A stretch of 64,000 nucleotides of DNA, taken from Candidatus Micrarchaeota archaeon. GTDB lineage: Archaea > Micrarchaeota > Micrarchaeia > Norongarragalinales > SBBD01. The position numbers were made by a program, and so were the translations under genes. The stretch covers positions 913 through 64,912 of the forward strand of contig JAHJQN010000002.1 of the NCBI GenBank assembly GCA_018819225.1, given 5' to 3'. The stretch's first letter is position 1. Every line of letters starts with the position of its first letter. The notes below the pieces were generated by a model that was not told the origin of the DNA, ran no database searches, and saw only the letters and a program-made list of their open reading frames with translations. Positions 11,706-64,000 of the stretch are shown here, piece by piece.

Positions 11706-11833
11706 GAACTTTAAATTATTCCTTCGTTTAAAAAGTGTATCTTGCATTCCATGCGAGTTCAACCCATTCTTTTTATACCCTCAAACATATCGTTTACTTG
11801 GAATAGCCGTTTCTCATTTGAGGTGAGCGTCTC

Positions 11834-40029: not shown

Positions 40030-40123
40030 GGCTTTCTCTCCCAAAAGAGGGTTTGCTGCCATAGCTTTTAAAGGGAACTCGCTCTACCCATTCCATTGGT
40101 TTAAATACCATTTTGGGTTGACC

Positions 40124-46312: not shown

Positions 46313-46340
46313 TGCGCATGGTTGCAAGGGGTGAAAGGGG

Positions 46341-47672: not shown

Positions 47673-48323
47673 ATGGATTATGCCCAATACGCCGATCCCC
47701 TCGTTTCCTTTGCGTCCACGATTTACGCGTACGGGGATGCCGTGCTGGGGAGCATGGGCATGACCATTGCCGTGCTAGCCATCGGGATGGCAGTCTACGC
47801 GGCGATTGTCGGCACGTTTTACACCTTTCTTTCCCGGCGCGTGTTATTCGATGTCAAGGATCAAAAGAAAACCGGCGTCCTGGGATTCTTATCCAAACTG
47901 ACGGGTATCGTAGGGTTGATCGTCAATTACACGATCATTTTCCCTCTCATCGTATTCATCTGGTTCGTGCTGCTCTCTTCATTCCTTTTCTTCCTTTCCC
48001 GCACGCTCACTCTTGAGACGGTGTTCGTGCTTTCTCTTTCCGTGGTCAGTGCGATCCGCATTCTCGCATATTACAAGCAGGAAATTGCCGTGGATTTATC
48101 GAAAATGTTACCGCTCGCACTGCTGGGAGTGTTGATCGTCGAGCCCACGCTTTTTTCTCAAACGCTTTTCGAGGACCGTCTAATGCAACTCCTTTCCGCG
48201 TTGCCTCGCTTTGCTCCCTTTCTTTTGCTCGTCATCGGTTTGGAATGGACGCTTCGCATTGGTTACGCGGTTTCCAAAATATTCGTTCGCAAGAAAGACG
48301 ACGCATCCTCTCCCTCGGAGTAA
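47673..48323 (+). CDS. Polytopic membrane protein
   Basis: Several hydrophobic helices; RILAYYKQEIAVDLSKMLPLALL. Confidence 0.75.
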   Translation: MDYAQYADPLVSFASTIYAYGDAVLGSMGMTIAVLAIGMAVYAAIVGTFYTFLSRRVLFDVKDQKKTGVLGFLSKLTGIVGLIVNYTIIFPLIVFIWFVLLSSFLFFLSRTLTLETVFVLSLSVVSAIRILAYYKQEIAVDLSKMLPLALLGVLIVEPTLFSQTLFEDRLMQLLSALPRFAPFLLLVIGLEWTLRIGYAVSKIFVRKKDDASSPSE

Positions 48324-48376
48324 CTTTTTTTCCCGCAACGCATACGCTTTAATTCCGTCTTTTCCTTCGTTATTTC

Positions 48377-49405
48377 ATGCGCTTGCCCGCCATCGCGCTG
48401 TTACTCGCCTCGATTCTGGTCAGCGTCCACGCGCTTTCCATTGAAGACGAAGCGAGCTTCTACGCGGAGCCCGGGGAAAAATCGGCGTATGCCCCCTTGT
48501 TATACGACGGACAAGACTATTTCTTGATTCTCGTCGATAATCGTCCGGTGGCTTTGCTGACGCGGGAGGGAATAGATCTCGTGATCGTTCAAGACACACG
48601 ATTCATTGACCTCATTCTCCGGGAATTCGTTGCCGCAGGCTTTCCATCCATCCTACTGGTTACGGAGGAAGGAAAGTCTTATGCATCCGTTCTGAAAAAC
48701 GAGCAGTTTTTACGCCAGCCCGCTGCGGAAAGACGAAAGATCATTTACTCGCGCGACATCGCCTATCGCGACCTGTTAGTGCGGCGCGATATCCTGTTCA
48801 AAAAATTGAACGCTTTGAGGGAAGTCGAGCTCGTGGCCCTGGATGACGATCTCGTGATTCTCAACCAGTTATTGCGCGACATGCGGCAGGCGCATTCGTT
48901 GGAGGCCGTGGAAAAATTTGCTTCGCGTTTCGATACCCGTTTGGAGCCCGCGGTCGATCGCGTCGAAAACTTGGAATCCATTGTCGAAGCGCATTACCTG
49001 GCTTCAAGAGGCATAGCGAACGCGTCGCGTGCCATCGATAAGGCGCTCATTCGTTTCGGAACGGATTCCGAGCTCTTAAAAGAGCTTAAACGGGATCTGC
49101 TGGCTCTGGAGTACGACATGACGCAGTTGGAAGCGAGCATCAGCACCGGCAAACCCCTTGAAACGCGCGATTTTTCTCCCATTGCCACGGGCGCGCGAGT
49201 CATTCTCCGCGAATCGGAAGGAAAAACCGCATTCCCCTGGGTATGGTACGCCTTCTCTCTCATATTGCTTGGGCTCTTGGTTGCAGGAAGTTATTTGTTC
49301 TATAAGAAATACCGTCCGCGCTCGCCGAAAGAAGCATTGACAATAGGCCAGCGCATCCTGCGCAACTTTCGCTTGTTTGAAGAAAAAGAGGAACGGAACT
49401 CTTAA
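48377..49405 (+). CDS. Exported helical protein with C-terminal TM anchor
   Basis: Signal peptide, coiled-coil-like middle, TM followed by KKYR. Confidence 0.7.
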   Translation: MRLPAIALLLASILVSVHALSIEDEASFYAEPGEKSAYAPLLYDGQDYFLILVDNRPVALLTREGIDLVIVQDTRFIDLILREFVAAGFPSILLVTEEGKSYASVLKNEQFLRQPAAERRKIIYSRDIAYRDLLVRRDILFKKLNALREVELVALDDDLVILNQLLRDMRQAHSLEAVEKFASRFDTRLEPAVDRVENLESIVEAHYLASRGIANASRAIDKALIRFGTDSELLKELKRDLLALEYDMTQLEASISTGKPLETRDFSPIATGARVILRESEGKTAFPWVWYAFSLILLGLLVAGSYLFYKKYRPRSPKEALTIGQRILRNFRLFEEKEERNS

Positions 49406-49671
49406 GGCGAGGTTGGCTCGGCCACGTGTTCGGCGACAATCTCGAAATCCTTGTCCCGCGCGGAACGCGTTGAGGTCTTGTTTTTCATATCCTCTTTCAG
49501 CTGCTTCGCCTCCCCCATGATTTTATCCGCATACGTTTCCATTTCCTTCAGTCGGCGTTCTTGCCGCTGAAGCAAGCGCTCCTCGTTTTGTTTCATTTTC
49601 GTTAGCATGTACGCGAATACCGTTAAAGCGCCTGCCAGCCACACGGCCATGAACAGAATGGAATCCGCCAT
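49402..49671 (-). CDS. Small membrane-anchored coiled-coil protein
   Basis: GGAGG RBS; MADSILFMAVWLAGALTVF followed by a charged helix. Confidence 0.65.
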   Translation of the reverse strand: MADSILFMAVWLAGALTVFAYMLTKMKQNEERLLQRQERRLKEMETYADKIMGEAKQLKEDMKNKTSTRSARDKDFEIVAEHVAEPTSP

Positions 49672-49732
49672 ATCCCTCCAGTGCTTTCTCGAGATCACTA
49701 GTTAAAAGACAAGGGGGTTTGCGCACGAAAGC

Positions 49733-50335
49733 CTACGACGCCAAGTCGAACCAAATATCGTAGCTCATATACGACGACGTTTTGGCGACAACGATTTCAT
49801 AGCTGAGCGTCCCGAACCCGTTCGTCGAGGTAAACGCGGAAATTTCCGTGCAGAAGAAGTAGTTGGACGGAGCCGCCGCATCATAGAATATTCCGGTCAA
49901 GCGGTTGTCCGTCGTATTCAATTTGTTCACGCTGGATGTATTGCATACGGTGTCCTGCGTATCGAAATGGTTGCTCGTAACGTAGTATCCGGTCAGCGAG
50001 AAGTTGCCGTCCGTGTTCGCGGTCGTTGGCGCTGCCGAGAAGGGTTCGGTCGGCGTATCCCCTTCATCGAAAAAGAATAGTTTTCCGTAATGGACGGTTT
50101 TCCGGTACATGACGTTTCCCAGAGAGGTGTCGTTTCGGACCTCGAAGCTTACGTTGCCGTAAAAGCCCACGTATTGCTGCATTCGACCCGCTACCGACAT
50201 GTTGCGCGAGGTCCCGTTATTGGTCGGCACGGGCTCCGCCGTATTATCGGATTGCTCGACTGCTGCCCAAACGAACGTCACGAGAAGCGCGAACGCTATA
50301 GGCAACGCGAGAGACAGTACTCTCTTATTCCTCAT
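49733..50335 (-). CDS. Secreted beta-rich surface protein
   Basis: Signal peptide; QQYVGFYGNVS; two Cys; several sequons; no anchor. Confidence 0.7.
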   Translation of the reverse strand: MRNKRVLSLALPIAFALLVTFVWAAVEQSDNTAEPVPTNNGTSRNMSVAGRMQQYVGFYGNVSFEVRNDTSLGNVMYRKTVHYGKLFFFDEGDTPTEPFSAAPTTANTDGNFSLTGYYVTSNHFDTQDTVCNTSSVNKLNTTDNRLTGIFYDAAAPSNYFFCTEISAFTSTNGFGTLSYEIVVAKTSSYMSYDIWFDLAS

Positions 50336-50629
50336 GTGCATCGGTCCTGTGAAACGGTTTTTCTACCAAAACAGTCGCTCCAAGACTGTCCAAAAACCTT
50401 GTTTGATGGGTACGCTTCATCAACGCAAGGTGCTTTATTAATCTTATTGTATGGGTTCCGAACGAATTTTGGTGCGATGATTAACGAATTCTTCCTCGTA
50501 GATTTTAAGGGATTCTGCACCGGGATGAAAGAGTAGGTTTTTAAGGGATTGCTCAATAACGAATGCAGGTTTTCGCGAGGCAATTTGCAGGAATTTTCGC
50601 TTCGTTGTAGGGAGGGGGTTGTACCGTAA

Positions 50630-53600
50630 GTGAAGCATGCTGAGCCACTCAGGCGGAGAAGCCAGACCACGCTACTTTTTTCCTTAGTTTGGCTCACCTT
50701 TTTCGTTGGATTCCTGTTTCAAGCCATTGGCATTGTCAGCGAAACCGCGGTCTCGAATCCCATCGCATTGCAAGAAGAACTGCAGGCCCCGACTCCAGCC
50801 CCGACCCCTGTTCCCTCGCTTCTTCCTTCACAAACTCCTTCTTCTGCTCCTTCACCTGAAACCACTACGACTCCTGTTCCTACGCCTTTCCCTCCCGATG
50901 AAGAAAACCTTTCGCTTACCCCTACTCCTTCAACGGATGCCTCGCCTGCTCCTACTCCCGATTCAACGCCCCTCCCTTCCTCAAGCGCTTATCCTTCATT
51001 GAACGTAACCGCTGCACCCACCCCGGATTCAACCGCAACTCCTTCACTGGAAGCGAATGCCACGCCCACGATCAACGTTACGGTTGCTCCCACCCCTATG
51101 ATCAACGTCACCGCGATCCCAACCATTAATGCGACTCCGACTATTCCCATTAACGCCACGCCTTCCCCTACTGCAAATGAGACGCCGACCCCTACGATCA
51201 AACCTCCAGCAAACGAAACAAACCAAACCAATGAAACGAATGACACGCTTACCTTGCTAACGCTCCAGATTTCCGAACCCGTTTATGCGGATCGGGATTT
51301 CATTGTAGACGCGGTTCTAACCACGGAACTCGGGGCCCCGGTAATGAACGCGATTATTTCTTTGGAAGTAATACGCGAGTTTCAAGCCGTTGAATACGGA
51401 AGCGACGTGCGCAATGAACCCCTTTCTGCGACAACGAATGAAGCCGGCATAGCGTCCTTCACCTTAAACTTGAACGCCGGTACGCATACCTTGAAGGCGT
51501 TGTTTGAAGGAAACGAGGCATTCCAATTACTTCCCTCGGAAGCGCGCAAAAAGCTTCGCGTCATCGCACTCGAGCCTGGTCAAGCGGCTACCCAACTCAT
51601 TCTCACCTTGAACACTACAACCCCAATCCCCAATGAGGCTATCTTAGCTGAGGGTTTTCTTTCTTTCGTGAACGGCTCGGGCATTCCGAACGAAAGCGTT
51701 CAGTTTTCTGTTGATGATGAATGGCTTGGAAATGCGGGCACGAACGAAAACGGTTCCGTCTTTATGCAATACGCGGTTCCCGAAGGAATGAACGGCACGC
51801 ATTTCCTTGAAGCCCTTTTCAATGGAACCGCGAATCTTACTTCCTCGTTTGATTCGGTTGCATTTACGATAACGATTCCTTCCTCGAATGAAACCAACCA
51901 GACCAACCAAACGAATCAGACGAACCAAACCAACGGAACGGATCTTAACGGAACCCACCAGACGTTCTTGAAATTGGATGTTCCGGCCCTGCACTTGCGA
52001 AACGACCCTCTACACGTTCGCGTGCGCGCGTCCGTTCCCAACACCTCGTTCGTTTTGTGGCTGGAGGTTCCCGAAACCTTTTTTGCAGTCAATCGAACCG
52101 CCACCTCCTGCGAGAACTCGTGCGCGTGGGACGTCGAACTCGATGCCTCCCAATCCTGGCCCGGTGAAAAAGAAATTACGGTGCACTTGGAGTCTCCTGA
52201 ACAGAACCTTTCCGAAAGCGCTTCTCTGGCTTTGCTGGGCCGCTCCGAGTTGCACCTTTCGTTGAACGCTTCTTCCGTGCGAGCTAATGAAACCGTTCAA
52301 GCCCGCGTTTACCTGCAGCTCGACAGCGAAGACGTACTGGAAGCGTATCCCGTCGAGTTCTTTGTAGACAATGAAAGCGCGGGAAAGAACGAAACCAATG
52401 AAACCGGGGAAGCGCTCTTCGATTACGCGCCCCCTTCATCCAAGAAACGCGTGCGCGCCCTGCAAGCGGTTTTCGCGGGAACGGATTACATTCTACCGGC
52501 TTCTTCCATCGCCCTCTTCGAGAACGCGGACGCGCCCTCCCTGTTGACTGCGGACATCCGAGGCCTGCGTTCCCATTACACGGCCGGCGAAGAAATAGCG
52601 TTCGAGGTCCTAGCGCTCAACCAATACGCGGAAAAAGTTGATTCGGCAGGCATTGCGGTTTTACTTGAATACCCGGATGGAAATCAAACCTCTCTTCGCA
52701 TTAAGGAAAAAGAGGGCGTGCGATACGTTTCCTTCCCAAGAGGAGAACTGACGCTTCCCGGAATCTACAAAGTGAAAGTAGTCGCTTCTTATGTGAAAGG
52801 CGAGCCCACGCTTCAAGCCGCAACGGAAATCAGCGAAACCATCATTACCCCTTCGCCGACTTCCGGTTTCAAGGCCATTGAACGCATGCGCGAAATCGAG
52901 TCCTTGCAGCAAAACGTCCGCGCCACGGACTTGATTCCCACGCCTCTTGCGTTCGACGAACCCGAGGCCGGCGTTTCCATTTATCCGAATGTTGCGGGAT
53001 TCGATTCCCTCTCAATCGGAGAAAGCGTGGAGGGCGCTGCTGAAAAGGAATTTGCTCTCGGGCTCGTCAACATCAACACGAACCAAACCGTTTACGCCCC
53101 TTCATCCCTGGTCAACGTATTCGTTGGAGTGGTGGCGAACGACGGAGCGCGAGTTGACGGGGCAAACGTCAGCGTCAACATCACCTCTCCATCCGGACTC
53201 AACCAAAGCTTTTCCACAACGGACTACACGATCACGGACAACTGGAACGGCATCTACGATCTGAGCTACTTTGCAACGGAAGTCGGCGCGTATACTATCA
53301 CGGCGCATGCCGAGCGCTTCGATGTCAATCAAGTCGCCAACAGCACGTTTGAAATCCGCGCCTCTTTTCCCATGGATATTGACCGCGAGTTCTCTACGGT
53401 TATATGGCCCCAGCCGCAACTCGCGATATTCAATCTTCACGCCCGGGAAACGCTCCTGAATGCCTCGTTCACGGAATTCGTTCCGCACGGATTCGAAGTC
53501 TATTCGAGTCCCGAAGCCATCATCCAAAACAATTCCGAAAACGTTTCCATCACGTGGCCGCTTGGCGATGTGGCAGCCGGAACGGACCTGCAATTGTTTT

Positions 53601-56600
53601 ACCGTTACACGCCTCCCCCTGAATCGCCTCGCCTCTATCCCTTGGGTGCGGCACGCCTGGATTACGATCTCGGCGGCTTCGAGGAAACGCGTCCCTTCTC
53701 GCTTTCCGTGGACGACTGGGGGTTCATCCACGACTTCACGTTCTACTACGATTCCTCGTTCGGAGGTTCCAATCCGACGCCGTGGCATCCCATGGCGTTA
53801 TGCGCCAACACTTCCTACAACGTCAGCGTCGGCATCACGAACCTGCATTCAGGCGCGGACACCGACGAGGACATCATCATCCAGAGCGCTACGGGCGCCG
53901 TGTTTTCCGCGCTGCCTTCCAACGGCTGGAATCTTGGCGCGGGGGACACCGGGACCCACAAACTGCGGCTCTGCGACTCGGACGGAGGTACCGGAGGGTG
54001 CGCCGACCCGGTCTATGCACGCAACCGCACGGACTACAACGTTTCCGCGAACAAGACCGGCACGTTTACGCTGCGCTCGTACATGATTCAGCGGAACGGA
54101 GTCGTGCAGTTCTTCAGCAACCGACAGCAAGTGCAAGTGTTCCAGTGTACGGGAGTCGCGCAAGCCAATCGTCCTTTACGCGCGCTTGGAACGGACGGCC
54201 ACCCCAACCAGCTCATCCGGGGAACCGTAAACACGATCGCCATGCCCTTGTTCAACTACGAAACCAGCGCTCAAAACGCGGTCAACGTCACGCTCGAAGT
54301 CAAGGACGTTACCCTCTCGACCATGGATTGGTGGACGGAGGAAAATCTTACGCAGACGCGCGACTTTTCCGGCTCAACGCTTGGTGTCAATCCCTCGTTC
54401 AACGAAAGCGTTGTTCGTTGGCGAGTACACGTTCCCGCTGACGCCGACGACGTAACCTTCACGGCGAACGTGAACGTGAGCTACTCTGGCGGCTCGCGCG
54501 TTTACTCTACGCAATTCACGCTTCAACCGCTACCCATCGTGTTATACACGGGCCTTGCAAACTATACGACGGACACAACATCGAACGTAAACGATCGAAC
54601 CAACCAGACCATCGGCTTCTGCAACTTCTACGATCGTCCGGTTAATGCGACGCTGCGAGAGGAATGTCCGGGAGCGTATTTCTGCAGGACGAGCAACCCC
54701 GTTGTATCCGATCCCATGCCCGACGTAAACCTTGAAGGATTTCTCGAATGGCAGAACCGTAGTCTGGATCCCAGCCAATGCTTCGGAACGGCCATCGAGT
54801 ATTATCACGCCGATGAAAACCCGGGAGTGCATACGTTCGTGCAGACCGTGATCTGGGACGATGGATTGCTTGGAATCGATGAGTTCCTTTCTGTTTCCCA
54901 ATACAATGCGGATCAAACCGCCCCCTATGCCATCATCTCCAATGATAATGTGTCTGAAAACGCGAACACGTCCGTAGCACAGAACGCTACTTTCTCACCA
55001 GTGCTCCGAATCGTCAACCGCGGAGGCGCGCAAGGCAATAATATGCTCCGCATGCACTACAACGAGCTATGGGTTCCGCAAGGCTTCTCTCGGCCGCAAG
55101 CTTTCGTCGGTATCCCCTCTGGATCCGGAGGTTCTTCACCGCTGCTACCCGGTTTCCCCATCGGCTCCGAGGAAGAAGGCTGGTGGAGCAAGTTCGTGAG
55201 CTTTTCGGAAGAAAACGAATTGGCCGAGGCAACTGGCGAACTCTACGTGAATTTCAAGACCAACGCGTCCTTCACCGTAGATTATCCTCCCGGAGGAAAG
55301 CTCTTCCAGTTCTGGAGCAACGGAGGTGTTGACTCCCCGCTTCCGCGCCAGTACCGCATGATGCAGCAGAAGTACGTCGTAGAGGTCAAAGGCCCGGAAA
55401 TCAAGACCGTTCGAAGAATTTACAACGAGAGCACGGGCCAGTGGACGAAAAACATTCCGGACACGCTGACCTGCGGAACCTACAATTTCAGCATCGAGGT
55501 CATCAACCGCGGCAACTGGAACGTGACTGGAGCCATTGTAAACGAAACGTTCCCATCACAAGTGTCGGCAGGCAACTTCACTCCCTCGAACGATTCCGGA
55601 GGCGATTATTTCGCGTACTGGAACGAGGGAAGCGGCTTGAATTTGTACGCGAACGGAACCTTGGGCTCCCGGTTCTACAACTACACGTTCACGCTTCCCC
55701 TCGGAACCGCGAACGATACCGTCTTCAGAGTCAACGTCACGAACGGGTCCAATTACGTGGACCATTACGGCCAATTTTATTCCATTGATCTGGTTTGCAC
55801 GGACATTCCGCAGTTCCGTAGCGTGAACGTCACGAACCAGACCATGGGCTGGGGGTTCACGAAAAACTTTTCCGTTGAAGTCTTCAGCCAATTCCACAAC
55901 CTGACCGTCAACTTGTCGGTTTCCCAAAATCCTGCAAGCGGTTTCCAGACCATCAACTGGACTTTCGTGAACGATTCGGGGAACTGGGGGTGGGCGAACT
56001 TCACGCAAAGCTTCAATTCTACCGATGTGGGCACGTGGTACTTCAAGTTCCAGGCGTGGGACGAGGATGACAACAGCAACTCGAGCATCGTTGACGTCGT
56101 CGAAACCTTTTACGTTGTCCAAAAGGACACCGTAACCGCGCAGCACATTTTCGGTAACCTCAGTACATCCAACCGTTCAGGTTCCCAAGTCGCGCCGTTG
56201 ATCGTGCGCCTGACGGACACGAACGGCTCCGTGCTGGACGGACAGGAAATCAACGTTTCCGTTACCACGGACGGAATTTCCTTCGGCTCCGCCACGGCCA
56301 ACATCACTAACGGGTCCGGCGACGTTCACCTGGATTTCGATGCCACATGCGTTCCGCTGTATTCGGTCGGGACCCAGCGATGGAAAGTAGAAATTTCCGG
56401 CAGTGCAGCGTACAACGACTTCACGAGCGAATTGTATTATCTCTATGTACGGGGCAATCTGCTCAACAACCAGTCGGATCCCACGGGCGCCAGCAATTTC
56501 ACTGAAGGGGACGACGTCACGATTCTGGGGAGCGTGACCGACGACTGCACCACCTACCAGCCAGGGGCTACGGTCCAGTTCAATTTGACGGGCGACTGGA

Positions 56601-59600
56601 AATACTATCAATGCACTCCGACGAACGATCTGGGAGGGGGATTCTATCGATGTATTTGGGAAACAAATGGCTTGTATGGCGGATGGTACAACGTCACTCA
56701 GAACTCCTCGCTTGCGAATCATTACCAAAACTTCAGCGTTGCAAACAACTACTCGAATCCCGGAGGCAGTTTGTTCTACTTGTACGGAAAAGTCAAGCTA
56801 TCCGGACCCAACGCAACGCCTACCGGAGAAGGCTGGGGGCGGGCGGTCAACTACAGCGTCAATTATACCGCCCCGCATCCGGATGTGGCATCCACGGCTC
56901 GCCTGGAGCTCGAGTGTCCTGGTTGCAGCCCCGAAGTGCTTCCGTTCGAAGTCTCTCCGCAATACGATTGCGTGGGCTGCGACAACGTATCCGCGAGCTG
57001 GAATTACAATTATTCTTGTACGACGATCGGAACGTGGTATTACACGTTCCGAGGAAATACGTCGGAAGGAACGAGTTCCGCGACTTCGCAATTCAATCAC
57101 TTGGTTACGAAAGACACGGAGACCATTGATTATTACGCGGGAAATAATACGATCGCTAATCGATCCGGCAGCCAAGTCCGAGCCATTTCAGTTATCGTTA
57201 ACGATACCGATCGAAATCTGGCTCCGGATCCCGCGGCAACGGTCTGGTTTAATGTAAGCACCAATTCTTCCGCCAATGTCTCGTTGGGAAGCAATTCCAC
57301 GAATACGACGGGAGTCGCTTTTTACGATTTCAACCCGTCTTGCGATTACGGTGTGGGGTATCGGAACTGGAGCGCGTTCATCAATTCAACTGAAGCGTGT
57401 TATGCCGTAAACGGGACGAGCATCCTAAACGTTTCCGTGTACGGAGATTTCGCTTTCAACGTCACGGATCCCAACGGCGACGAATACGTTGCGGGAAACA
57501 TCACGAACATCAGCGTGGAAGTGCAGGACGAGTGCGGCTTGCTTCTCACGGATATCGCAACCAACCGCATCTGGTTCTCGATCGCAGGGCCTTTCAACAC
57601 GACGGTATGCGATTCCACGAACATCACCAGCATGGGAAACGGCACCTACATTTGTACGTGGAATACGACGAATTACTGGGCCGGCTATTACGATGTGACG
57701 ATCAACGCCACAAAAGATTTCTACAACTACTATGAGCACTTGGACAACAACACGGTGCGCTTGTTGTCCCCCAACAACACCGCGCCCCTCGTATTGAACG
57801 AAAGCGTTTCCCCGGATCCCGGCGGCTGGAGCGACTCGTTCAATTTCTCTGTTCGCGTCCAGGACGCGGAGAGCAACAACGTGTTCGTCGCATTATACGA
57901 TGCGAACACGACCGTGGGTCCGTTCCGTCATTTCGAGAACCAGACTTGCACTTCCTGTAACGATCAGCAAGTCAATTTCACGATCGACAAGACCATACAC
58001 AATTACACGTGCGCCGACATGGGGACGAAGTACTATAAGTTCAATGCCACGGACGATGAGGGCATCACGAACGAGTCCGTGGTTTCAAACTGGACGATCG
58101 AGGAAGACAATACGACTGCGTTGCACTACGCGGGAAACGAATCGTATGTCAACCGGTCGGGCACGAACTCCACCTTATTGTACATTCAAGTCAACGACAC
58201 CGACAACCAGTCGTTCGTTCCCGCTGAAGTGAATTCCACGGTTTGGATTACGACGGACGGAAGCAATTACGATTTGGGAGGCGTCAACGTCACGAACGCG
58301 TCCGGAGTCACGAACCGGTCCTTCGATCCCTCGTGCAGTTACGCGGTGGGAGAACAGCGTTGGAAAGGAGGCGCCAGGGATGAAACGTGTTACGAGGACA
58401 CGAACTCCACGGACTACCTATCCGTTTACGTCGTCGGAGACTTTGTCCTCAACATTTCCGAACCCGTCAATCAGAATACGAGTAACATAACGGCAGGAAA
58501 CAACATCACGCTGAAGGCGGAGGTGCAGGACGAGTGCGGATTGCTGGTGGACGCGGCTTCGGTCAATTTCAGCGTCGAACACCGTGGAACCATATACGAT
58601 TGTCCCCTAACCGAAGAAAACGGCACGGGAATCTACAACTGCACGTTGCAGACGGACAATTTCATTGCGGGTTCCTACCAAGTGCACGTCGACGTCAACA
58701 AGACGTTCTACAATAATGCATCGACTACGAAGGATTACGCGTTCCACATCGAGAATGGAACGAACTTAACGGTTCAGAATGTAACTCCTCGCAGTTCGTA
58801 TTGGGGAGACACCTATAACTTCACTGTAAACGTCACGGATCCGGATGACAACACGACGGTTTACTTGTGGCAGAAGCGACCGGGGGGCACGTGGACATTC
58901 ATTTCGCAACAGGATTGTTTCAACTGCACGAACTCGCAGCTGCTTTTCCAAGACAGTTCGCACAGCGCGTGCTCGTTCTTCGGTAACTGGACGTGGAAAT
59001 TCAATGCCACGGACTCGTTTGGAAACCTTTCCTCGCTTTCGGATGACTGGTTCAACCTCACGAAACGAAATCTTATTACCGCATCTCGCGAAGGGGATTT
59101 GGATGCCTGGAAGCGTAACACGAATTCTTCGCAGATGACCATCGCGTTTATCGATGCAGTTGACCCGGATCTCGATATAGGAAGCGGAGTCGTTGGAACG
59201 CTTTACGTGACTACGAACAATTACACGTATGTTGGAAACGGCTCCAATACATCGGTCAATGGAAATGTATCGCGTATTTGGCAGCCCGCATGCGGTTTCG
59301 ATGTCGGACAACACGTGTTCAGCATCGGAGTAGCGGAAACCTCTTGTTATTTCGCAACGAATTCTTCAAACTACAGCGCCGAACTCTGGGCCCCTCCGTT
59401 GAACAACAATGCGACGCAGCCCCATAATGGCGCATGTTATTTGGTCGGCGATTCCATTACGATGAACGGAACCATTCACGATGAATGTGAAGCAGTGGTG
59501 GGAGCGTCCCCCGTTAACTTCTACGCGCAACGCAGCTCGTATTTCGCTGCAGGCGCCACGACGGATTTGGGCGCCGGAAACTACAGTGCAGACTGGGATT

Positions 59601-62600
59601 CCTCTGGACGATCCTACGGCGTCTACAACATTTCATTGAACAGCTCGAAATCCTACTACGATAAAGGAGAAAACAAGAGCATGGATGCGTTGCGCTTAGC
59701 GTCCGTTCCTCAACTCTGGAACCACACCGTCGATATTTCGAGTGATGGATGGGGAGTTCAGCGCCAAGTCAACGTCACGGCGCGCAACGGCGACGGAGAA
59801 AACTTCGATATTTTCTTCTGGGCGCGCGCTGCCGATGAAGCCTGGGAGCTCATGGATTCCCAGACGTGCAGCAATTGTCTCTTCGAGGAAGTGAAGACGT
59901 TCTATTTCATGAGCTCGTGCTCGAACTTGACGGCGAACGCCACGTGGGAGTACAAGTTCAACACTTCGGGAAGCAGCTCGTGCGGATCCTTCAGCAATGA
60001 AACCTCGGTTCAAAACTTCACGCTCGAAAAGGATAACGTATCCGTTTCCTTGCTGTCCATTGACACGAATGTTTCCCGAATTGATAGCAACCGGATTCAG
60101 CTTTCCGCTCGCGTGAACGACACGGACAACGGAACGCTCGTTGGCGCCAGCGTTAATTCCACGTTCTGGGTTACGTACAACTTCACTGCCTATGACCCGG
60201 GTTGGACGAACTTAACGAATGCCTCTGGAGAAACCATGTATTTCTTCAATCCGTGGTGTGCCTATAACGCCTCGATTCACTATTGGAAAGTGGGCGTATT
60301 GAACGATAGCTGCTACTCGAATAAGAATTCCACCGAGGGCTCCTTTGATGTCATCGGGCGCATGAATGTCACGATTGAAATTCCGCCCATTGAAGATACT
60401 TTCAATGTCACGGACGATATACCGATTTCTTGGAACGTCCAAAGCGATTGTTCGGAGGAAGGCTATTTACCGGATCTGGAGCCGACCACGGGATTCACGA
60501 ACGTCACCTTAATCTTCAATACCACGGGCAATCCTTCCTCGAATGCGTGTTCCCCGGTCAACAACTCGTACAACGGAACATACAATTGCTCGTGGAATAC
60601 CTCGGAGGAGCCTCAAGGCAATTGGACGATCCGCATTTTCGGAAACAGGACCTATTACGATGAGAACCAAACCGACTTCACGAACTGGATCAATCTTTCC
60701 AACCGGCAGACCAACGCGACGGATCCCATTGTCAACGTTTCCATGGACGGGTGGGGCGCCGTATTCCAGTTCAACACAACGGTGAGCGACCCCGAAGCGG
60801 ATGATGTTACTTGCAAGCTATTCGTTAACTCGGGAAGCGGATGGAAGGAGTTTGGTTCCGATGTGGTATACGGGGGGAGCGGAAACTGCAGCGTCGTTGT
60901 CAATAATTTCGCGTGCGGTGACATAAACAACGAATCCTCTTTCTTGTTCCAAATCGATGACAACGCGTCCGCCAAGCAATTCAATACCACTACCAACACG
61001 TCACTGAACTTGACGGAAGACGAGCTCATCGTATACTATATTTCAGGAAACTTCACGGATGTCAACCGAACCGGAACGAATACTTCCCTGTATCGAATGC
61101 GGGTTTATGACAATGACAATTTAGCGTTTGCTCCCGCGGGCGTCAATACTTCGGTCTGGGTGACCTTGAACAACGGCATCGCGTGGGATTCCGGCAACTA
61201 CTCGACGACGGATTCCAGCGGCTATATCGACTATAATTTCAATCCGACCTGCAGCTATACTGTCGGACAACAAAACTGGGTAGGCGGAGTGAGTAACGAC
61301 AATTGTTACTTGGATACGAACATCACGGAAACCATGAATCTCACGATTAATGGAACCATTAACTCGTACTTGGTCGGCCCCAACGGAACCGAAGTGCTTC
61401 GTGGAGACAATGTCACCATTCGGGTCAACGCCACGGATGATTGTAGCGTGGCTATGGAGAACGCGTCCTCCATGTTCTATGCCGTTCACCGGAATTCCTC
61501 AACGGGTTATGCGTGCGGCGATCCGCAAAATGAAGCCACGGGTTTCTACAACTGTACGCTCAACACCACGAGTTTCGCTCTCACGCACGGCGGCGGATTC
61601 TACAGCGCCATCAACCTCTCGCAGCCGTATTACATCAACGCCACGCTCAACATTTCTTATAACGCAACGAATTCATCGTTCTGGCATGAGCTGATTCCCC
61701 TTCTTTCCGACGAAGCCGTTACGCCTTCAACAGGAGGCTGGGGAGAAACGTTCTATTTCACCGTAAACGGAACGGACTACGACAATGACACGATCACGAT
61801 TTACGCGTACTTCAAGCAATTGACTCCCGTGGCGGGATCGTGGACCCTCTTAGGTTCGCAAGCCGTCACCGGATTCAACCAGACCGCGAATTTCACGAAA
61901 ACCTTCTCCACCGATCCCGCGAACATTGGCAACTGGAGCGTACGATTTAATGTAACGGAAGATGATGTCTGGAACTTTACGGCTCCGGATGTGAATTTCA
62001 CGGTGGAGAAAGACGATACGAATGTCACGTACGTTTCCGGCAACCTTTCGAACGTGAGCCGAATCGGCACCAACTTTACTACGCTGCGCTCGAGGGCTTT
62101 TGACGAGGACAAGGTGACTCAGAATATTGGGTCGCATGAAGGACGCTTCTGGATGACGAAAGACGGAACAAACTGGGATGCCGGCACGCAGATTTACACG
62201 AACGCATTCGGCAATTTCACGGTAACGAACGCGCAATTCGAACCGGATTGTACTTATGAAGTGGGTCCGCAGCAATGGAAGATGGGCTTGCTGGAAGCCG
62301 ACTTGTATAAAGCCTCCAACATGACGGCTAATGCGACTATTGATTTGCGCAGCGAATTCGATCCAGAAATGATCGGTCCGCGTAATGCCACGTACATCAA
62401 GGGTTCCGATGATGTTCCGTTGTACGCGAATCTATCGGATCTGGGCGGGTGCGGGCTCGTGAACGACAGTACGGTATATTTCCAAGTGGATTCCGCATAC
62501 GCCTGCGGGCAAGCAACGGATCTCGCGAACAATGGCACCTACAATTGTACGATTCCGGCAGCGATTATGGGTTCATGGGCATACGGATGGTATAACGTCA

Positions 62601-64000
62601 CTGTTAATGCTACTCGACCGTATTACAATTACACGTATGAAGCATTCAATTACTCGTTCTATCTTGCAAGCAGTCCTTCGCTCAACACGCCGACCATTGA
62701 TACGTCTTCCGGAGGTTGGGGAAGAAACTGGACATTTACCGTTCGAGCAACGGACCTAGACGACAATAATCTTACCGTGCAGGTTTGGAGAAACTTCTCG
62801 GGAACGCATCAATTGCTGGGAACGCAATGGTGCACTTCCTGTTCGAATACCCTCCTTACTTTCTACTACTGGGACTTCACGTGCGGTGATATCGGAGGAG
62901 GAGAATACTTCTTCAATGCAACGGACGAGTTCAACCTCACCGCGAATACGACTCCGGCTGCATTTACTGTAGATAAGAATTCCATCGTGATGGAGCTCGT
63001 TGAAGGAAACGGCGGAAATATCGGTCGGCCGGAAGTCAACGCGACTCCCTTGGTCGTCCGGGCATTCGACAGCGTCTTGAACGATTATGTGGGAGCAGGA
63101 GTCAATGGTTCGTTCAACATCACGGTGAACGGAAGCGATTGGGGCGACTCCATTTACAACACCACGAATTCTTCCGGGCACTTGGTATTGAATTGGGATC
63201 CGGTATGCGGTACCGTCGCAGGTCAACAGAAGTGGCGAGGCGGGGTATTCAACGATTCATGTTACTCGAATTCATGGACGGCTAACTTCAGCAAGAACGT
63301 AACGGGCGGCTTGAATCTAACGGTGGAAATCCCCGAATACGATACGAACTTCAATACCTCGCAACCCGTAGAGACGTTCTTCAACATCACGTCCGAGTGC
63401 GTGGTGGACGGGCCCATTGGCAGCGGGTCCACGAGCGTGGAATTCATACCGATTTCGGGCTCCGTGAATTCCTGCGGTACCATTAACGACTTCGGCAATG
63501 GAACCTATAATTGCACGTGGCCAGGCGGAACCGAGCTTGGAAAATGGGATATCCGAATCAACGCAAGCGTCAATAACCTGTACTTCTTCAACAGCACGAC
63601 GTTTGATGATTGGATCAATCTCAGCAACGCCGTTTCTTCCTATACCAACCTATCCGTTACCCCGAAAGATGATGGCTGGAGTCACGTGTACACGTTCTCC
63701 GTGAATGTCAGCGATCCCGATAACAACAACATAAACTGTACGTTGTGGACCAGCACGAATGGCGGAGCGGATTGGGTCATGCGCGGAAACGGAACGGTTT
63801 CCGAAGGGCAAGGTGTTTGTGCCGTAAACTATTCCGGATTTTCTTGCGGGGACATCGGCACCGACAATTCATTCCAATTTACGGTAACGGACTGGAACAC
63901 GACCGAGATTTACAATACGATTAACACGACGAATGCGAGCGGTCCGAACCTGACGCAAAGTTTAGTTGGAATTAACTACACCGTCGGAAATGAAACCTCG
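50630..64000 (+). CDS. Giant surface glycoprotein/adhesin (>=4457 aa, continues beyond the right edge)
   Basis: GTG 50630 after GGAGG; N-terminal hydrophobic segment and P/T-rich stalk. Every segment I translated is in frame +2 through to 64000, and the track lists no frame +2 ORF here, as expected when the frame has no stop. Confidence 0.88.
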   Translation, partial: MKHAEPLRRRSQTTLLFSLVWLTFFVGFLFQAIGIVSETAVSNPIALQEELQAPTPAPTPVPSLLPSQTPSSAPSPETTTTPVPTPFPPDEENLSLTPTPSTDASPAPTPDSTPLPSSSAYPSLNVTAAPTPDSTATPSLEANATPTINVTVAPTPMINVTAIPTINATPTIPINATPSPTANETPTPTIKPPANETNQTNETNDTLTLLTLQISEPVYADRDFIVDAVLTTELGAPVMNAIISLEVIREFQAVEYGSDVRNEPLSATTNEAGIASFTLNLNAGTHTLKALFEGNEAFQLLPSEARKKLRVIALEPGQAATQLILTLNTTTPIPNEAILAEGFLSFVNGSGIPNESVQFSVDDEWLGNAGTNENGSVFMQYAVPEGMNGTHFLEALFNGTANLTSSFDSVAFTITIPSSNETNQTNQTNQTNQTNGTDLNGTHQTFLKLDVPALHLRNDPLHVRVRASVPNTSFVLWLEVPETFFAVNRTATSCENSCAWDVELDASQSWPGEKEITVHLESPEQNLSESASLALLGRSELHLSLNASSVRANETVQARVYLQLDSEDVLEAYPVEFFVDNESAGKNETNETGEALFDYAPPSSKKRVRALQAVFAGTDYILPASSIALFENADAPSLLTADIRGLRSHYTAGEEIAFEVLALNQYAEKVDSAGIAVLLEYPDGNQTSLRIKEKEGVRYVSFPRGELTLPGIYKVKVVASYVKGEPTLQAATEISETIITPSPTSGFKAIERMREIESLQQNVRATDLIPTPLAFDEPEAGVSIYPNVAGFDSLSIGESVEGAAEKEFALGLVNINTNQTVYAPSSLVNVFVGVVANDGARVDGANVSVNITSPSGLNQSFSTTDYTITDNWNGIYDLSYFATEVGAYTITAHAERFDVNQVANSTFEIRASFPMDIDREFSTVIWPQPQLAIFNLHARETLLNASFTEFVPHGFEVYSSPEAIIQNNSENVSITWPLGDVAAGTDLQLFYRYTPPPESPRLYPLGAARLDYDLGGFEETRPFSLSVDDWGFIHDFTFYYDSSFGGSNPTPWHPMALCANTSYNVSVGITNLHSGADTDEDIIIQSATGAVFSALPSNGWNLGAGDTGTHKLRLCDSDGGTGGCADPVYARNRTDYNVSANKTGTFTLRSYMIQRNGVVQFFSNRQQVQVFQCTGVAQANRPLRALGTDGHPNQLIRGTVNTIAMPLFNYETSAQNAVNVTLEVKDVTLSTMDWWTEENLTQTRDFSGSTLGVNPSFNESVVRWRVHVPADADDVTFTANVNVSYSGGSRVYSTQFTLQPLPIVLYTGLANYTTDTTSNVNDRTNQTIGFCNFYDRPVNATLREECPGAYFCRTSNPVVSDPMPDVNLEGFLEWQNRSLDPSQCFGTAIEYYHADENPGVHTFVQTVIWDDGLLGIDEFLSVSQYNADQTAPYAIISNDNVSENANTSVAQNATFSPVLRIVNRGGAQGNNMLRMHYNELWVPQGFSRPQAFVGIPSGSGGSSPLLPGFPIGSEEEGWWSKFVSFSEENELAEATGELYVNFKTNASFTVDYPPGGKLFQFWSNGGVDSPLPRQYRMMQQKYVVEVKGPEIKTVRRIYNESTGQWTKNIPDTLTCGTYNFSIEVINRGNWNVTGAIVNETFPSQVSAGNFTPSNDSGGDYFAYWNEGSGLNLYANGTLGSRFYNYTFTLPLGTANDTVFRVNVTNGSNYVDHYGQFYSIDLVCTDIPQFRSVNVTNQTMGWGFTKNFSVEVFSQFHNLTVNLSVSQNPASGFQTINWTFVNDSGNWGWANFTQSFNSTDVGTWYFKFQAWDEDDNSNSSIVDVVETFYVVQKDTVTAQHIFGNLSTSNRSGSQVAPLIVRLTDTNGSVLDGQEINVSVTTDGISFGSATANITNGSGDVHLDFDATCVPLYSVGTQRWKVEISGSAAYNDFTSELYYLYVRGNLLNNQSDPTGASNFTEGDDVTILGSVTDDCTTYQPGATVQFNLTGDWKYYQCTPTNDLGGGFYRCIWETNGLYGGWYNVTQNSSLANHYQNFSVANNYSNPGGSLFYLYGKVKLSGPNATPTGEGWGRAVNYSVNYTAPHPDVASTARLELECPGCSPEVLPFEVSPQYDCVGCDNVSASWNYNYSCTTIGTWYYTFRGNTSEGTSSATSQFNHLVTKDTETIDYYAGNNTIANRSGSQVRAISVIVNDTDRNLAPDPAATVWFNVSTNSSANVSLGSNSTNTTGVAFYDFNPSCDYGVGYRNWSAFINSTEACYAVNGTSILNVSVYGDFAFNVTDPNGDEYVAGNITNISVEVQDECGLLLTDIATNRIWFSIAGPFNTTVCDSTNITSMGNGTYICTWNTTNYWAGYYDVTINATKDFYNYYEHLDNNTVRLLSPNNTAPLVLNESVSPDPGGWSDSFNFSVRVQDAESNNVFVALYDANTTVGPFRHFENQTCTSCNDQQVNFTIDKTIHNYTCADMGTKYYKFNATDDEGITNESVVSNWTIEEDNTTALHYAGNESYVNRSGTNSTLLYIQVNDTDNQSFVPAEVNSTVWITTDGSNYDLGGVNVTNASGVTNRSFDPSCSYAVGEQRWKGGARDETCYEDTNSTDYLSVYVVGDFVLNISEPVNQNTSNITAGNNITLKAEVQDECGLLVDAASVNFSVEHRGTIYDCPLTEENGTGIYNCTLQTDNFIAGSYQVHVDVNKTFYNNASTTKDYAFHIENGTNLTVQNVTPRSSYWGDTYNFTVNVTDPDDNTTVYLWQKRPGGTWTFISQQDCFNCTNSQLLFQDSSHSACSFFGNWTWKFNATDSFGNLSSLSDDWFNLTKRNLITASREGDLDAWKRNTNSSQMTIAFIDAVDPDLDIGSGVVGTLYVTTNNYTYVGNGSNTSVNGNVSRIWQPACGFDVGQHVFSIGVAETSCYFATNSSNYSAELWAPPLNNNATQPHNGACYLVGDSITMNGTIHDECEAVVGASPVNFYAQRSSYFAAGATTDLGAGNYSADWDSSGRSYGVYNISLNSSKSYYDKGENKSMDALRLASVPQLWNHTVDISSDGWGVQRQVNVTARNGDGENFDIFFWARAADEAWELMDSQTCSNCLFEEVKTFYFMSSCSNLTANATWEYKFNTSGSSSCGSFSNETSVQNFTLEKDNVSVSLLSIDTNVSRIDSNRIQLSARVNDTDNGTLVGASVNSTFWVTYNFTAYDPGWTNLTNASGETMYFFNPWCAYNASIHYWKVGVLNDSCYSNKNSTEGSFDVIGRMNVTIEIPPIEDTFNVTDDIPISWNVQSDCSEEGYLPDLEPTTGFTNVTLIFNTTGNPSSNACSPVNNSYNGTYNCSWNTSEEPQGNWTIRIFGNRTYYDENQTDFTNWINLSNRQTNATDPIVNVSMDGWGAVFQFNTTVSDPEADDVTCKLFVNSGSGWKEFGSDVVYGGSGNCSVVVNNFACGDINNESSFLFQIDDNASAKQFNTTTNTSLNLTEDELIVYYISGNFTDVNRTGTNTSLYRMRVYDNDNLAFAPAGVNTSVWVTLNNGIAWDSGNYSTTDSSGYIDYNFNPTCSYTVGQQNWVGGVSNDNCYLDTNITETMNLTINGTINSYLVGPNGTEVLRGDNVTIRVNATDDCSVAMENASSMFYAVHRNSSTGYACGDPQNEATGFYNCTLNTTSFALTHGGGFYSAINLSQPYYINATLNISYNATNSSFWHELIPLLSDEAVTPSTGGWGETFYFTVNGTDYDNDTITIYAYFKQLTPVAGSWTLLGSQAVTGFNQTANFTKTFSTDPANIGNWSVRFNVTEDDVWNFTAPDVNFTVEKDDTNVTYVSGNLSNVSRIGTNFTTLRSRAFDEDKVTQNIGSHEGRFWMTKDGTNWDAGTQIYTNAFGNFTVTNAQFEPDCTYEVGPQQWKMGLLEADLYKASNMTANATIDLRSEFDPEMIGPRNATYIKGSDDVPLYANLSDLGGCGLVNDSTVYFQVDSAYACGQATDLANNGTYNCTIPAAIMGSWAYGWYNVTVNATRPYYNYTYEAFNYSFYLASSPSLNTPTIDTSSGGWGRNWTFTVRATDLDDNNLTVQVWRNFSGTHQLLGTQWCTSCSNTLLTFYYWDFTCGDIGGGEYFFNATDEFNLTANTTPAAFTVDKNSIVMELVEGNGGNIGRPEVNATPLVVRAFDSVLNDYVGAGVNGSFNITVNGSDWGDSIYNTTNSSGHLVLNWDPVCGTVAGQQKWRGGVFNDSCYSNSWTANFSKNVTGGLNLTVEIPEYDTNFNTSQPVETFFNITSECVVDGPIGSGSTSVEFIPISGSVNSCGTINDFGNGTYNCTWPGGTELGKWDIRINASVNNLYFFNSTTFDDWINLSNAVSSYTNLSVTPKDDGWSHVYTFSVNVSDPDNNNINCTLWTSTNGGADWVMRGNGTVSEGQGVCAVNYSGFSCGDIGTDNSFQFTVTDWNTTEIYNTINTTNASGPNLTQSLVGINYTVGNETS
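55847..64000 (+). repeat. Tandem ~325-aa protein repeat, at least 8 full units plus a partial ninth
   Basis: Trp of the recurring G-W-G-like motif at 55850, 56834, 57827, 58802, 59750, 60752, 61739, 62717 and 63677. Confidence 0.85.

Follow-up and report, generated by a model that had tools for sequence, protein, structure and literature searches.

The N-terminal half of a probable SPEARE-type giant gene at a contig end in a Micrarchaeota genome

The window, a 64,000-nucleotide stretch of contig C8 from a Candidatus Micrarchaeota genome, ends inside a giant gene whose first 4,457 codons occupy 50630..64000 on the + strand and which very probably resumes on contig C5. Frame +2 has no stop from the GTG at 50630 to the window edge at 64000 and is 3'-open, and when translated past the edge it continues without a stop as far as contig C8 extends, giving 4,722 codons in total. 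The chance of zero stops in 4,457 codons at the region's own base composition is ~1e-83, and 50630-64000 is real coding sequence. A sequence-only reading of this DNA had described one frame running from GTG 50630 to the edge and encoding at least 4457 amino acids, and had proposed translating it past 64000, and on both counts it is borne out. It had also presented the gene as hidden and missing from the list of ORFs. Under default settings the list does indeed contain nothing of at least 230 aa in 50000-64000; this is an artefact of the listing and not a concealed gene, because frames running off the source sequence are left out. Among the 12 other ORFs of 150-228 aa listed over 48000-64000, nine lie inside the giant frame, in a different frame or on the opposite strand, and these are the shadows that it had described. 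Directly upstream is a divergent intergenic region (50342..50629, no strand assigned) with, as read from the sequence, a GGAGG-like stretch located ~14 nt upstream of the GTG, which a TAA immediately precedes, and any promoter here is only putative. Beyond this, on the - strand, lies the gene of a 202-aa secreted-type protein (49733..50341), a conserved neighbor of the 5' end of the giant gene, for which no Pfam family was matched.

The encoded polypeptide opens with a basic stub (RRR) followed by an N-terminal hydrophobic segment (residues 14-37; 50669..50740, +), which in a Kyte-Doolittle scan is the sole hydrophobic segment among the 4,722 residues of the C8 half and is predicted to be either a signal peptide or a signal anchor. 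A P/T/S-rich stalk with sequons comes next (residues 46-215; 50765..51274, +; P 22%, T 21%, S 10%), and a relative of the same family, here G006, has a comparable but longer one. Ahead of its own hydrophobic segment the G006 orthologue carries a cytoplasmic-looking N-domain of ~70 aa, hinting at an uncleaved anchor, with a weak Pfam match to MazE_antitoxin (E 0.058, below the cut-off); a search for an AbrB-like N-domain of this kind found no match in the 1 kb upstream of GTG 50630 or elsewhere in the genome. The stalk leads into Ig-like/macroglobulin-like domains (residues 216-899; 51275..53326, +) with Pfam matches to MG4 at 230-288, MG2 at 647-717 (39.3 bits, cut-off 32.8) and Filamin at 832-892 (34.6 bits, cut-off 26.9). 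The N-terminal hydrophobic segment and a stalk of ~170 aa had thus both been read correctly from the letters, the stalk being confirmed by composition, and the Ig-like segments are recovered by Pfam as MG4, MG2, Filamin, Big_7 and Big_1. Assignment to the alpha-2-macroglobulin/thioester proteins was rejected, as neither half of the gene contains a C[GLAS]EQ motif and the modeled parts have no helical domain, and only MG-type sandwiches are shared with those proteins.

Residues 900-1730 (53327..55819, +) form a conserved non-repetitive all-β module, defined by its homologues, an AF2 model and fold matches. It corresponds to the non-repetitive Cys-containing region of the earlier reading, now placed at ~53.3-55.8 kb and holding 10 of the 12 cysteines in the first 1,750 residues. 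The AF2 model is composed entirely of strands (pLDDT 74.9, pTM 0.75), and in fold searches it matches pilins, MSCRAMM adhesins and the Ig-like domains of integrin and transglutaminase, with Z up to 11.6; an Atlas match is DUF11/CARDB-like (0.92). On the strand pattern of this model, the module is read as several adhesin-type β-sandwich domains. Its identification as an enzyme, a lectin or a distinct catalytic module was discarded, as fold searches, in which model residues 271-688 were the best-tested part, matched Ig-like sandwiches only. An exhaustive library search of 1.84 billion representatives yields 39 homologues at E<=0.001, the full-span ones mostly beginning 240-860 residues into long proteins and the other rows being fragments. 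Residues 200-1620 searched against proteins of 2,451-7,800 aa in a 5.8-billion-protein collection give no match at E<=0.001, the protein itself included.

From 55823 onward the chain consists of the long tandem repeats that had been noticed in the sequence, in units of ~322 aa. Segmentation with hmmsearch and alignment define eight complete super-repeats (residues 1732-4337; 55823..63640, +) and the first 120 codons of a ninth cut by the window edge (63641..64000, +), which in full covers residues 4338-4662 (L004:18846-19820, 975 bases from window position 63641). The units are 25-39% identical to the reference unit in the alignment and follow a higher-order block pattern by repeat typing. The AF2 model of one unit (57791-58765, pLDDT 94.4) shows three β-sandwich domains to each super-repeat, and Foldseek ranks macroglobulin domains and the extender repeats of giant bacterial adhesins best (6xi3, TMq 0.50; 5irb; 4p99). 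The proposal to predict structure domain by domain has thereby been carried through for the modeled ectodomain parts, all of which are β-sandwich. Taking modeled and Pfam-matched parts together, the ectodomain is β-sandwich of adhesin type throughout, P/T-rich linkers aside, with no enzyme fold found by Pfam or by fold searches on the modeled parts. The sequon density is 6.4 per 100 aa compared with 0.49 in crude background ORFs, with 571 sequons in total, and the genome encodes an STT3 homologue (50.2 bits, cut-off 24.5).

Misassembly, raised at the outset as a threat to the frame, was examined against a second assembly. A 61,894-base Logan contig from run X1 spans L004:5001-19889 with 0 differences and 0 gaps over 14,889 bases and covers the whole C8 part of the gene, stopping 111 bases short of the contig end; run X1 may be the source sample, in which case the agreement is between two assemblies of one read set, with no independent DNA involved. 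Short contigs of two other studies match the gene at >=99% (7/7 and 5/5), and just short stretches of it are recovered from runs X2 and X3 (shares 0.11 and 0.06). The metagenomic origin of the genome, the repeat-rich gene and the contig break could point to a chimera of the assembly or to a gene that is dead; this is rendered scarcely credible by the identity of the second assembly, the matches in the two other studies and the complete lack of stops in 4,722 + 4,205 codons, the latter count being that of the C5 frame described below. The repeats are also unlikely to collapse because the units are just 25-39% identical.

At the end of contig C5, on the reverse strand, a further 4,205 codons run without a stop. 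The C8 and C5 frames are, with high confidence, one gene of SPEARE type, and it is equally probable that the C8 frame is the N-terminal half of that gene with the assembly break falling inside the repeat array. Evidence for this comes from G006, in which a single ORF of 12,373 codons is collinear with both halves: C8 residues 636-4719 align with G006 531-4601 (36.7% identity, 4,178 columns), the C8 N terminus (8-313) aligns to G006 66-425, and C5 residues 1-4205 align with G006 8167-12372 (43.8% identity, 4,250 columns). The flanks agree as well, the 202-aa divergent protein being 49% identical to a 199-aa ORF of G006 in the same position and orientation, and the 1,030-aa protein after the C5 half matching the downstream gene of G006 (37% over 739 aa); a 208-aa paralogue of the 202-aa protein is also found downstream of the C5 half. 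Nine full units and one cut unit are counted on C8, and one cut and five full units on C5.

The alternative of two separate genes, an anchorless giant adhesin ending in the gap (C8) and a second gene starting there (C5), draws on the junction itself, which is without direct observation, and on a repeat type at the C8 end that differs from that at the C5 start. The C8 end shares no exact overlap with the reverse-complemented C5 end, the only DNA similarity being that of paralogous units (69% over 339 bases), and no read or contig bridging the two was seen (reads aligned on the C8 side only), so a stop, a frameshift or another gene may lie within the gap. The doubled depth at the contig end can be cited for the same alternative, and means that sequence is missing; together with repeat typing it suggests that at least one ~322-residue unit is absent from the assembly, and two would be expected should the three-type block order hold. 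A 154-base unitig reaches 87 bases beyond the C8 end. Against two genes stand the uninterrupted ORF of G006 with its shared flanking genes, the phase of the break, with C8 stopping at position 54 of the repeat model and C5 beginning at 72, and the open 5' end of the C5 frame, which begins mid-domain and has neither a stop nor a signal sequence there. Two genes are consequently very improbable. The single protein would have no fewer than 8,927 residues, with a length above 9,250 being probable, and the whole is put at roughly 9,000-12,000.

The C5 half continues the repeats and passes through ~1,900 residues of Ig-like/NEW3-type sequence, a small Cys motif and a P/G/T linker to a single transmembrane helix near the C terminus (C5 residues 3806-3830). 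Beyond the helix lie a HerA/DUF87 P-loop ATPase of ~300 aa and then a helix-rich tail, the cytoplasmic part as a whole taking up about the last 365 residues. Across both halves (8,927 residues) the Kyte-Doolittle scan finds two hydrophobic segments only, one near either terminus, as fits a single gene. The motor scores 41.2 bits with DUF87 (cut-off 23.2) and 29.6 with HerA_C (cut-off 22), matches solved HerA chains at E 8e-8 and retains intact Walker A (GGTGSGKS) and Walker B (IIYDEVH) motifs. The Walker A G..G.GK and Walker B DEVH residues are invariant in 11/11 aligned tails, in which an REFRKWG block is also conserved, and motor identity is 46-87% across DPANN phyla with 78 invariant columns. 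Tail identity to G006 is 63%, compared with 36.7-43.8% over the two halves, and the alignment indicates that the motor is under constraint. The last ~85 residues look like a coiled coil, being by eye rich in helix formers, and are conserved in the tail alignment. The tail lies below the curated cut-offs of the named functional families (HerA_Thermprot 33 vs 800, CedD 27 vs 600) and of the T4SS families (TraC-F-type 25.9 vs 567, T4SS-DNA_transf 18.6 vs 20.1, AAA_10 19.6 vs 27.5), with no CagE/TrbE/VirB4 N-domain match listed for it, and any substrate of the motor is a guess because every named functional family is scored in this way. The genome holds one copy of the motor, which also fits a single gene, and no laminin-G or peptidase family is matched in either half (Pfam, E<=0.01).

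HerA/FtsK/VirB4 proteins are membrane-anchored ring ATPases that include archaeal HerA, the Ced-system ATPases and coupling proteins such as TrwB/VirD4. The motor shares with this class the P-loop core, Walker A and Walker B (hhhhDE), and with the coupling proteins a transmembrane helix immediately N-terminal to the ATPase; it differs in being fused to an ectodomain of >8,000 aa and in passing curated cut-offs for DUF87 and HerA_C alone. The bacterial giant adhesins (the Marinomonas ice-binding adhesin, 4p99 and 5irb, and the extender of a 'large adhesion protein', 6xi3) are built on the same rod of ~100-aa β-sandwiches, to whose extenders the Foldseek matches have E 1e-8 to 2e-9, and likewise have distinct non-repeated end domains. 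There is no sequence relationship (10-14% identity), and whereas those adhesins use type I secretion and outer-membrane retention, the archaeal protein has its own transmembrane helix and motor, contains cysteines and is predicted to be N-glycosylated. Halomucin of Haloquadratum walsbyi is not known to have either a C-terminal transmembrane helix or an ATPase. This secreted glycoprotein of an archaeon is likewise giant, with a similar size (~9,000 aa; PMC6642349), and differs in being described as a sugar-binding mucin-like coat.

The protein is a large new example of the architecture published for DPANN archaea as SPEARE, or 'giant membrane-anchored extracellular protein', the likeness being set by published descriptions and by loci of Nanohaloarchaea MAGs. 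The study of Hamm et al. 2019 (PMC6642349) gives nanohaloarchaeal SPEARE proteins of 5,998-8,553 aa, describes a transmembrane helix toward the C terminus with a conserved cytoplasmic part, Micrarchaeota included, and reports at least one laminin-G domain together with serine-protease and toxin-like regions in nanohaloarchaeal members. The study of Reva et al. 2023 (PMC10266531) describes SVXNc_0300 (9,409 aa, termed the largest protein in cultivated archaea) and BNXNv_0298 (8,880 aa), lists a signal peptide, ~75 Ig-like domains, a transmembrane helix, a VirB4/TraG-like ATPase and a terminal coiled coil, and disputes the protease and endonuclease assignments. Both papers put forward a family role in host interaction without proof, and the LamG/protease/toxin-like regions are treated here as variable and not defining. 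The present protein has the huge, mostly extracytoplasmic chain with a predicted export signal and the Ig-like arrays (MG2, Filamin, Big_7, Big_1, NEW3) on its own evidence and, via the C8-C5 join, the single C-terminal transmembrane helix with a cytoplasmic, helix-rich tail and the P-loop ATPase. The two assembled halves take up 1.95% of a 1.37-Mb genome, which agrees with the large investment for a small genome that had been surmised and resembles the ~2% of a ~1-Mb-class genome seen with SPEARE proteins. The differences are the source, a groundwater-metagenome Micrarchaeota and not a halophile, the three-domain ~322-aa super-repeat with its block pattern, the long N-terminal P/T/S stalk and the lack of laminin-G, WD40-like or protease-like parts in Pfam searches of both halves; the pI of 4.25-4.38 is near the 4.0-4.1 reported for halophile SPEARE proteins.

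Homologues of the tail number 261 proteins of 2,312-7,359 aa (E<=0.001, among 3,079 candidates); among the matches listed (120 of 261), Walker A is present in 120/120, Walker B in 115/120 and a transmembrane helix within 160 aa upstream in 113/120. Relatives are encoded at 473 loci in species-representative genomes, and Nanohaloarchaea/Nanohalarchaeota MAG loci (L056, L083 and L085) have tail identities of 57-63%. Strong motor matches (E<=1e-59) occur in 13 of 40 relatives searched, many of them incomplete, and Micrarchaeota as a whole may not need the motor protein. Term searches of two Micrarchaeota papers (PMC8784108, PMC12892359) turned up nothing on giant, SPEARE, HerA or surface proteins. 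The function of SPEARE-type proteins, the largest single investment of tiny DPANN genomes, is an open question of DPANN biology, and they are favored candidates for host capture and material transfer. The present case brings no new principle. It newly defines a rare conserved distal module of ~830 aa and the three-domain super-repeat, both suited to binding tests, and exemplifies annotation loss, the gene being split over two contigs and its C8 half not found as a 2,451-7,800-aa protein in the 5.8-billion-protein collection. It also points to a Micrarchaeota lineage in which the ORF of G006 (12,373 codons) exceeds the 9,409-aa protein of PMC10266531.

The reading we prefer, at a probability of about 70%, is that 50630-64000 belongs to the N-terminal half of a SPEARE-family giant gene encoding an exported, glycosylated fiber for cell contact with the ATPase as its motor. 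The polypeptide would be exported and N-glycosylated at many of the 571 sequons by the AglB/STT3 homologue of the genome, forming a fiber of roughly 75-80 β-sandwich domains anchored in the membrane through the C-terminal helix and, as estimated from domain size, extending a few hundred nm, comparable to the size of the cell itself. Such a fiber would most likely make or stabilize contact with a host or neighbor cell. By analogy with HerA/FtsK/VirB4-class motors, the cytoplasmic ATPase would most likely be a membrane-tethered ring translocase that links contact either with the ATP-driven transport of DNA or protein as its substrate or with remodeling of the fiber. A surface fiber serving cell contact is the reasonably probable part of this scheme, and movement of a substrate across the symbiont membrane, argued by analogy, is a tentative one. 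The suggestion of a giant adhesin or envelope-spanning structure therefore stands insofar as the chain is mostly extracellular, sequon-rich and of adhesin-type β-sandwich, with the correction that the frame is the N-terminal half only. That of a host-attachment component has in its favor the host contact proposed for the family in the literature, and attachment itself we infer from generic folds in models (TMq no higher than 0.5; Z around 11 for single domains).

The same generic β-sandwich folds, with no recognizable ligand-binding or enzymatic domain found, would also suit a passive glycoprotein coat, spacer or scaffold whose ATPase serves its own insertion, assembly or turnover with no host contact or transfer. 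The extreme sequon load and the failure to find T4SS partner genes or an adjoining second VirB4-like ATPase point the same way. This is nevertheless unlikely, as the distal N-terminal module is kept in 39 proteins as one block of ~800 aa, and conservation of that block suggests a specific function; the family is moreover concentrated in host-dependent DPANN lineages, and the literature places it, without proof, in host interaction. T4SS-like injection of effectors into the host through a VirB4/TraG-like domain, as proposed for nanohaloarchaea by Reva et al. 2023 (PMC10266531), could build on the weak matches to TraC, TraD, T4SS-DNA_transf and AAA_10. Every T4SS-family score is under its cut-off, no CagE/TrbE/VirB4 N-domain match is listed, no further motor copy exists in the genome and, whereas nanohaloarchaeal loci have a second VirB4-like ATPase downstream, the next gene here encodes the 1,030-aa protein, which is Pfam-less and looks like a coiled coil, making this mechanism distinctly doubtful.

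A more speculative arrangement, to which we give very little weight, is anchoring at both ends, with the N-terminal segment left uncleaved, the ectodomain of ~9,000-12,000 residues forming a giant glycosylated loop, and six such loops, brought together by the ring ATPase, making a docking barrel and conduit for host nanotubes. A barrel of this kind has reportedly been seen by cryo-tomography in a cultured Micrarchaeon. Were both ends anchored, host nanotubes would deliver DNA or proteins through a gated conduit on the symbiont side, and fiber length would be tuned by gain or loss of three-unit repeat blocks. The repeat units number at least 15-17 in the present gene compared with 26 in G006.

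As the sequence-only reading had proposed, reading frame +2 from GTG 50630 runs without a stop to the last base of the window (C8:913-64912), which gives 4,457 codons. It remains open when extended to the end of contig C8 (4,722 codons). A TAA lies immediately 5' of this GTG with a GGAGG-like stretch upstream, and the probability of so long an open frame computed from the base composition of the region is ~1e-83. The gene is indeed missing from the ORF track, where the default listing shows nothing of 230 aa or more in 50000-64000, because ORF lists omit frames running off a sequence end. The order of elements described earlier is also found in the translation, with an N-terminal hydrophobic segment (residues 14-37, the only one in the C8 half), a P/T/S stalk of 170 residues (P 22%, T 21%, S 10%), Ig-like segments recognized as Ig-like Pfam domains, a non-repetitive region that contains the majority of early cysteines, and long tandem repeats from 55823 onward.

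A survey of all contig ends in the source genome (1.37 Mb, 8 contigs, 90% complete) identifies a frame of 4,205 codons, open at its 5' end, on the reverse strand at the end of contig C5. It begins mid-unit in the same kind of repeat as C8, and at its 3' end encodes one transmembrane helix (residues 3806-3830), then a P-loop ATPase and lastly a helix-rich tail. Comparison of the sequences indicates, with a probability of about 0.9, that C8:51542 to the contig end and the C5 end down to position 121909 are one gene interrupted by an assembly gap. This assignment is based firstly on the repeat profile, in which C8 ends at model position 54 and C5 starts at position 72, placing the two contig ends in phase. 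Secondly, the same-family relative G006 contains a single ORF of 12,373 codons with an orthologous motor, an N-terminal hydrophobic segment and P/T/S stalk as in the C8 half, and collinear matches to both halves (residues 636-4719 of the C8 half to 531-4601 with 36.7% identity, and residues 1-4205 of the C5 half to 8167-12372 with 43.8% identity). The neighbors also match. A secreted-type protein of 202 aa is encoded divergently at 49733-50341 (reverse strand), and its orthologue (49% identity) occupies the equivalent upstream position in G006; downstream of the C5 half lies a Pfam-less protein of 1,030 aa, whose G006 orthologue (37% over 739 aa) is likewise encoded immediately after the giant ORF. 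Finally, only one copy of the motor is found in the 90% complete genome. A 208-aa paralogue of the 202-aa protein is located beyond the 1,030-aa gene in the C5 end locus (L003:2772-3398, reverse strand); both paralogues match a lone 199-aa gene upstream of the G006 ORF (49 and 46%, respectively), and neither of these proteins flanking the split gene has a Pfam family.

On the C8 side, to which the read and contig placement on sequencing run X1 was confined, a 61,894-base Logan contig of this run matches L004:5001-19889 (the C8 end locus) with 0 differences, although this agreement tests the assembler rather than independent DNA, since X1 is possibly the source sample. Short pieces from two runs of other studies were placed at ≥99% identity in 7 of 7 and 5 of 5 cases. 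No exact overlap between the C8 and C5 ends was found. The last ~140 bases of C8, beyond the window (L004:19847-20000), are covered by short unitigs with a depth of 32-40, whereas the main contig has a depth of 16; one of these unitigs extends 87 bases past the contig end. Further unitigs of depth 17-27 match stretches near the C8 end only partly, and the assembly contains no second copy of the doubled-depth stretch. Repeat copies, both near-identical and related, thus seem to have been omitted from the assembly at the C8 end. The cut unit at the start of C5 shares 55% identity with the final complete unit of C8 and at most 39% with the other complete units, making it a paralogue of the unit preceding the cut C8 unit rather than the continuation of the cut unit itself, which again suggests sequence missing between the contigs. 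The unitig depth and the unit types together point to at least one further missing unit (~339 residues including 17 missing model positions), and to two if the three-type block order of G006 holds. The G006 orthologue has 26 units, compared with nine full and one cut on C8 and one cut and five full on C5. The assembled protein comprises at least 8,927 residues (972 kDa unglycosylated), and the full protein probably exceeds 9,250.

The ~322-residue super-repeat is predicted to fold as three β-sandwich domains (pLDDT 94.4); the solved folds closest to it are macroglobulin domains (complement and α2-macroglobulin proteins) and extender repeats from giant adhesins of bacteria. In 39 aligned units (25-39% identity to the reference unit), Arg-122 and Cys-182 are invariant and several Cys positions near-invariant, a pattern that would fit disulfide-stabilized extracellular domains. 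Residues 900-1730, the Cys-containing region, form a conserved block that is rare: a search of 1.84 billion representatives gives 39 relatives, of which 14 reach E ≤1e-30. They usually align as one ~800-residue match; full-span matches mostly begin 240-860 residues into a long protein, and other matches are fragments. The model of this region is all-β (pLDDT 74.9, pTM 0.75), and its fold matches are limited to Ig-like domains of pilins, MSCRAMM adhesins, integrins and transglutaminases (Z ≤11.6, single domains), with no enzyme fold found in these searches, no thioester motif in a sequence search and no laminin-G or protease family in Pfam. The two halves contain 571 N-X-S/T sequons (6.4 per 100 residues compared with 0.49 in crude background ORFs), and an STT3/AglB homologue is encoded in the genome.

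The C-terminal cytoplasmic tail scores above the Pfam cut-offs for DUF87 (41.2 against 23.2) and HerA_C (29.6 against 22) and below those of every named functional family tested, T4SS families included; its best sequence match among solved chains is HerA (E 8e-8). It is 63% identical to the G006 tail and 46-87% identical across Micrarchaeota, Aenigmatarchaeota, Parvarchaeota, Woesearchaeota, Pacearchaeota and Nanoarchaeota, with 78 invariant alignment columns that include Walker A and B residues, and is conserved far more strongly than the fibre. The tail is common to 261 proteins of 2,312-7,359 aa, and among the 120 matches listed Walker A is present in all, Walker B in 115 and a transmembrane helix just upstream in 113. 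Relatives are encoded at 473 loci of species-representative genomes, including Nanohaloarchaea MAGs (57-63% identity), and a strong motor match (E ≤1e-59) occurs in 13 of the 40 nearest relatives, mostly members of the window's own family, where eight of 10 genomes have a motor match. Relatives with two motor-bearing giant genes (~62-64 and 41-45% identical to the tail of the C5 half) include G003, G006, G008 and G009. A tail 63% identical to the motor is also encoded on a 3.5-kb contig (L029) assigned to a Heimdallarchaeota MAG; this may be a binning stray, not an Asgard gene.

Such proteins were named SPEARE by Hamm et al. 2019 (PMC6642349), who describe them as very long and mostly extracellular with a transmembrane helix near the C terminus and a conserved cytoplasmic part, report similar cytoplasmic parts in Woesearchaeota, Aenigmarchaeota, Micrarchaeota and Altiarchaeales, and detected the protein of Ca. 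Nanohaloarchaeum antarcticus via proteomics. For the cytoplasmic part, Reva et al. 2023 (PMC10266531) gave a new annotation, a VirB4/TraG-like ATPase with a coiled coil after it; they counted ~75 Ig-like domains, reported finding no protease or endonuclease in the giant protein and described a protein of 9,409 aa as the largest among cultivated archaea. Few archaeal proteins exceed 10,000 aa according to the preprint of West-Roberts et al. The window gene is a large, assembly-split Micrarchaeota member of this family, for which the function is putative. The earlier proposal of a giant adhesin is reasonable but incomplete.

The topology elements, folds, sequon load, intact conserved ATPase motifs and conserved neighbors are established here, and a mechanism may be envisaged around them in which the polypeptide would be exported and N-glycosylated to form an extended fibre of ~75-80 sandwiches and a few hundred nm (estimated from ~107 residues per domain and the size of Ig-type domains). 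The conserved distal module would serve contact, and the membrane-tethered ring ATPase could link contact to translocation or remodelling, with DNA, protein or the fibre itself as candidate substrates. The N-terminal hydrophobic segment would be either cleaved or the anchor of a giant loop. In the G006 orthologue this segment is preceded by a ~70-residue domain (L013:2313-2528) with a weak AbrB/MazE-like Pfam match below the cut-off (E 0.058), whereas the window gene begins without such a domain. A TATA-like box is located ~45 nt upstream of the G006 ATG. In a cryo-tomography preprint on a cultured Micrarchaeon, host-derived nanotubes enter a barrel-like dock in the symbiont envelope, for which the preprint names no protein.

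Other very long frames in the source genome (3,453, 2,926, 2,906, 2,899, 2,390 and 2,331 aa) make giant surface proteins a general feature of the organism. Within the window, 40028-47141 encodes another large surface protein, 2,094 aa long, which carries an MG2 domain as well as NEW3 domains (85.8 bits). By eye, a hydrophobic stretch at its C terminus and a tail that is charged and helix-rich can be seen in the translation; a MinD/ParA-type ATPase (46341-47141) follows this protein directly. An open frame of 548 aa with an NPPW motif on the reverse strand at the C7 end suggests a DNA methyltransferase-type protein cut at the contig break.
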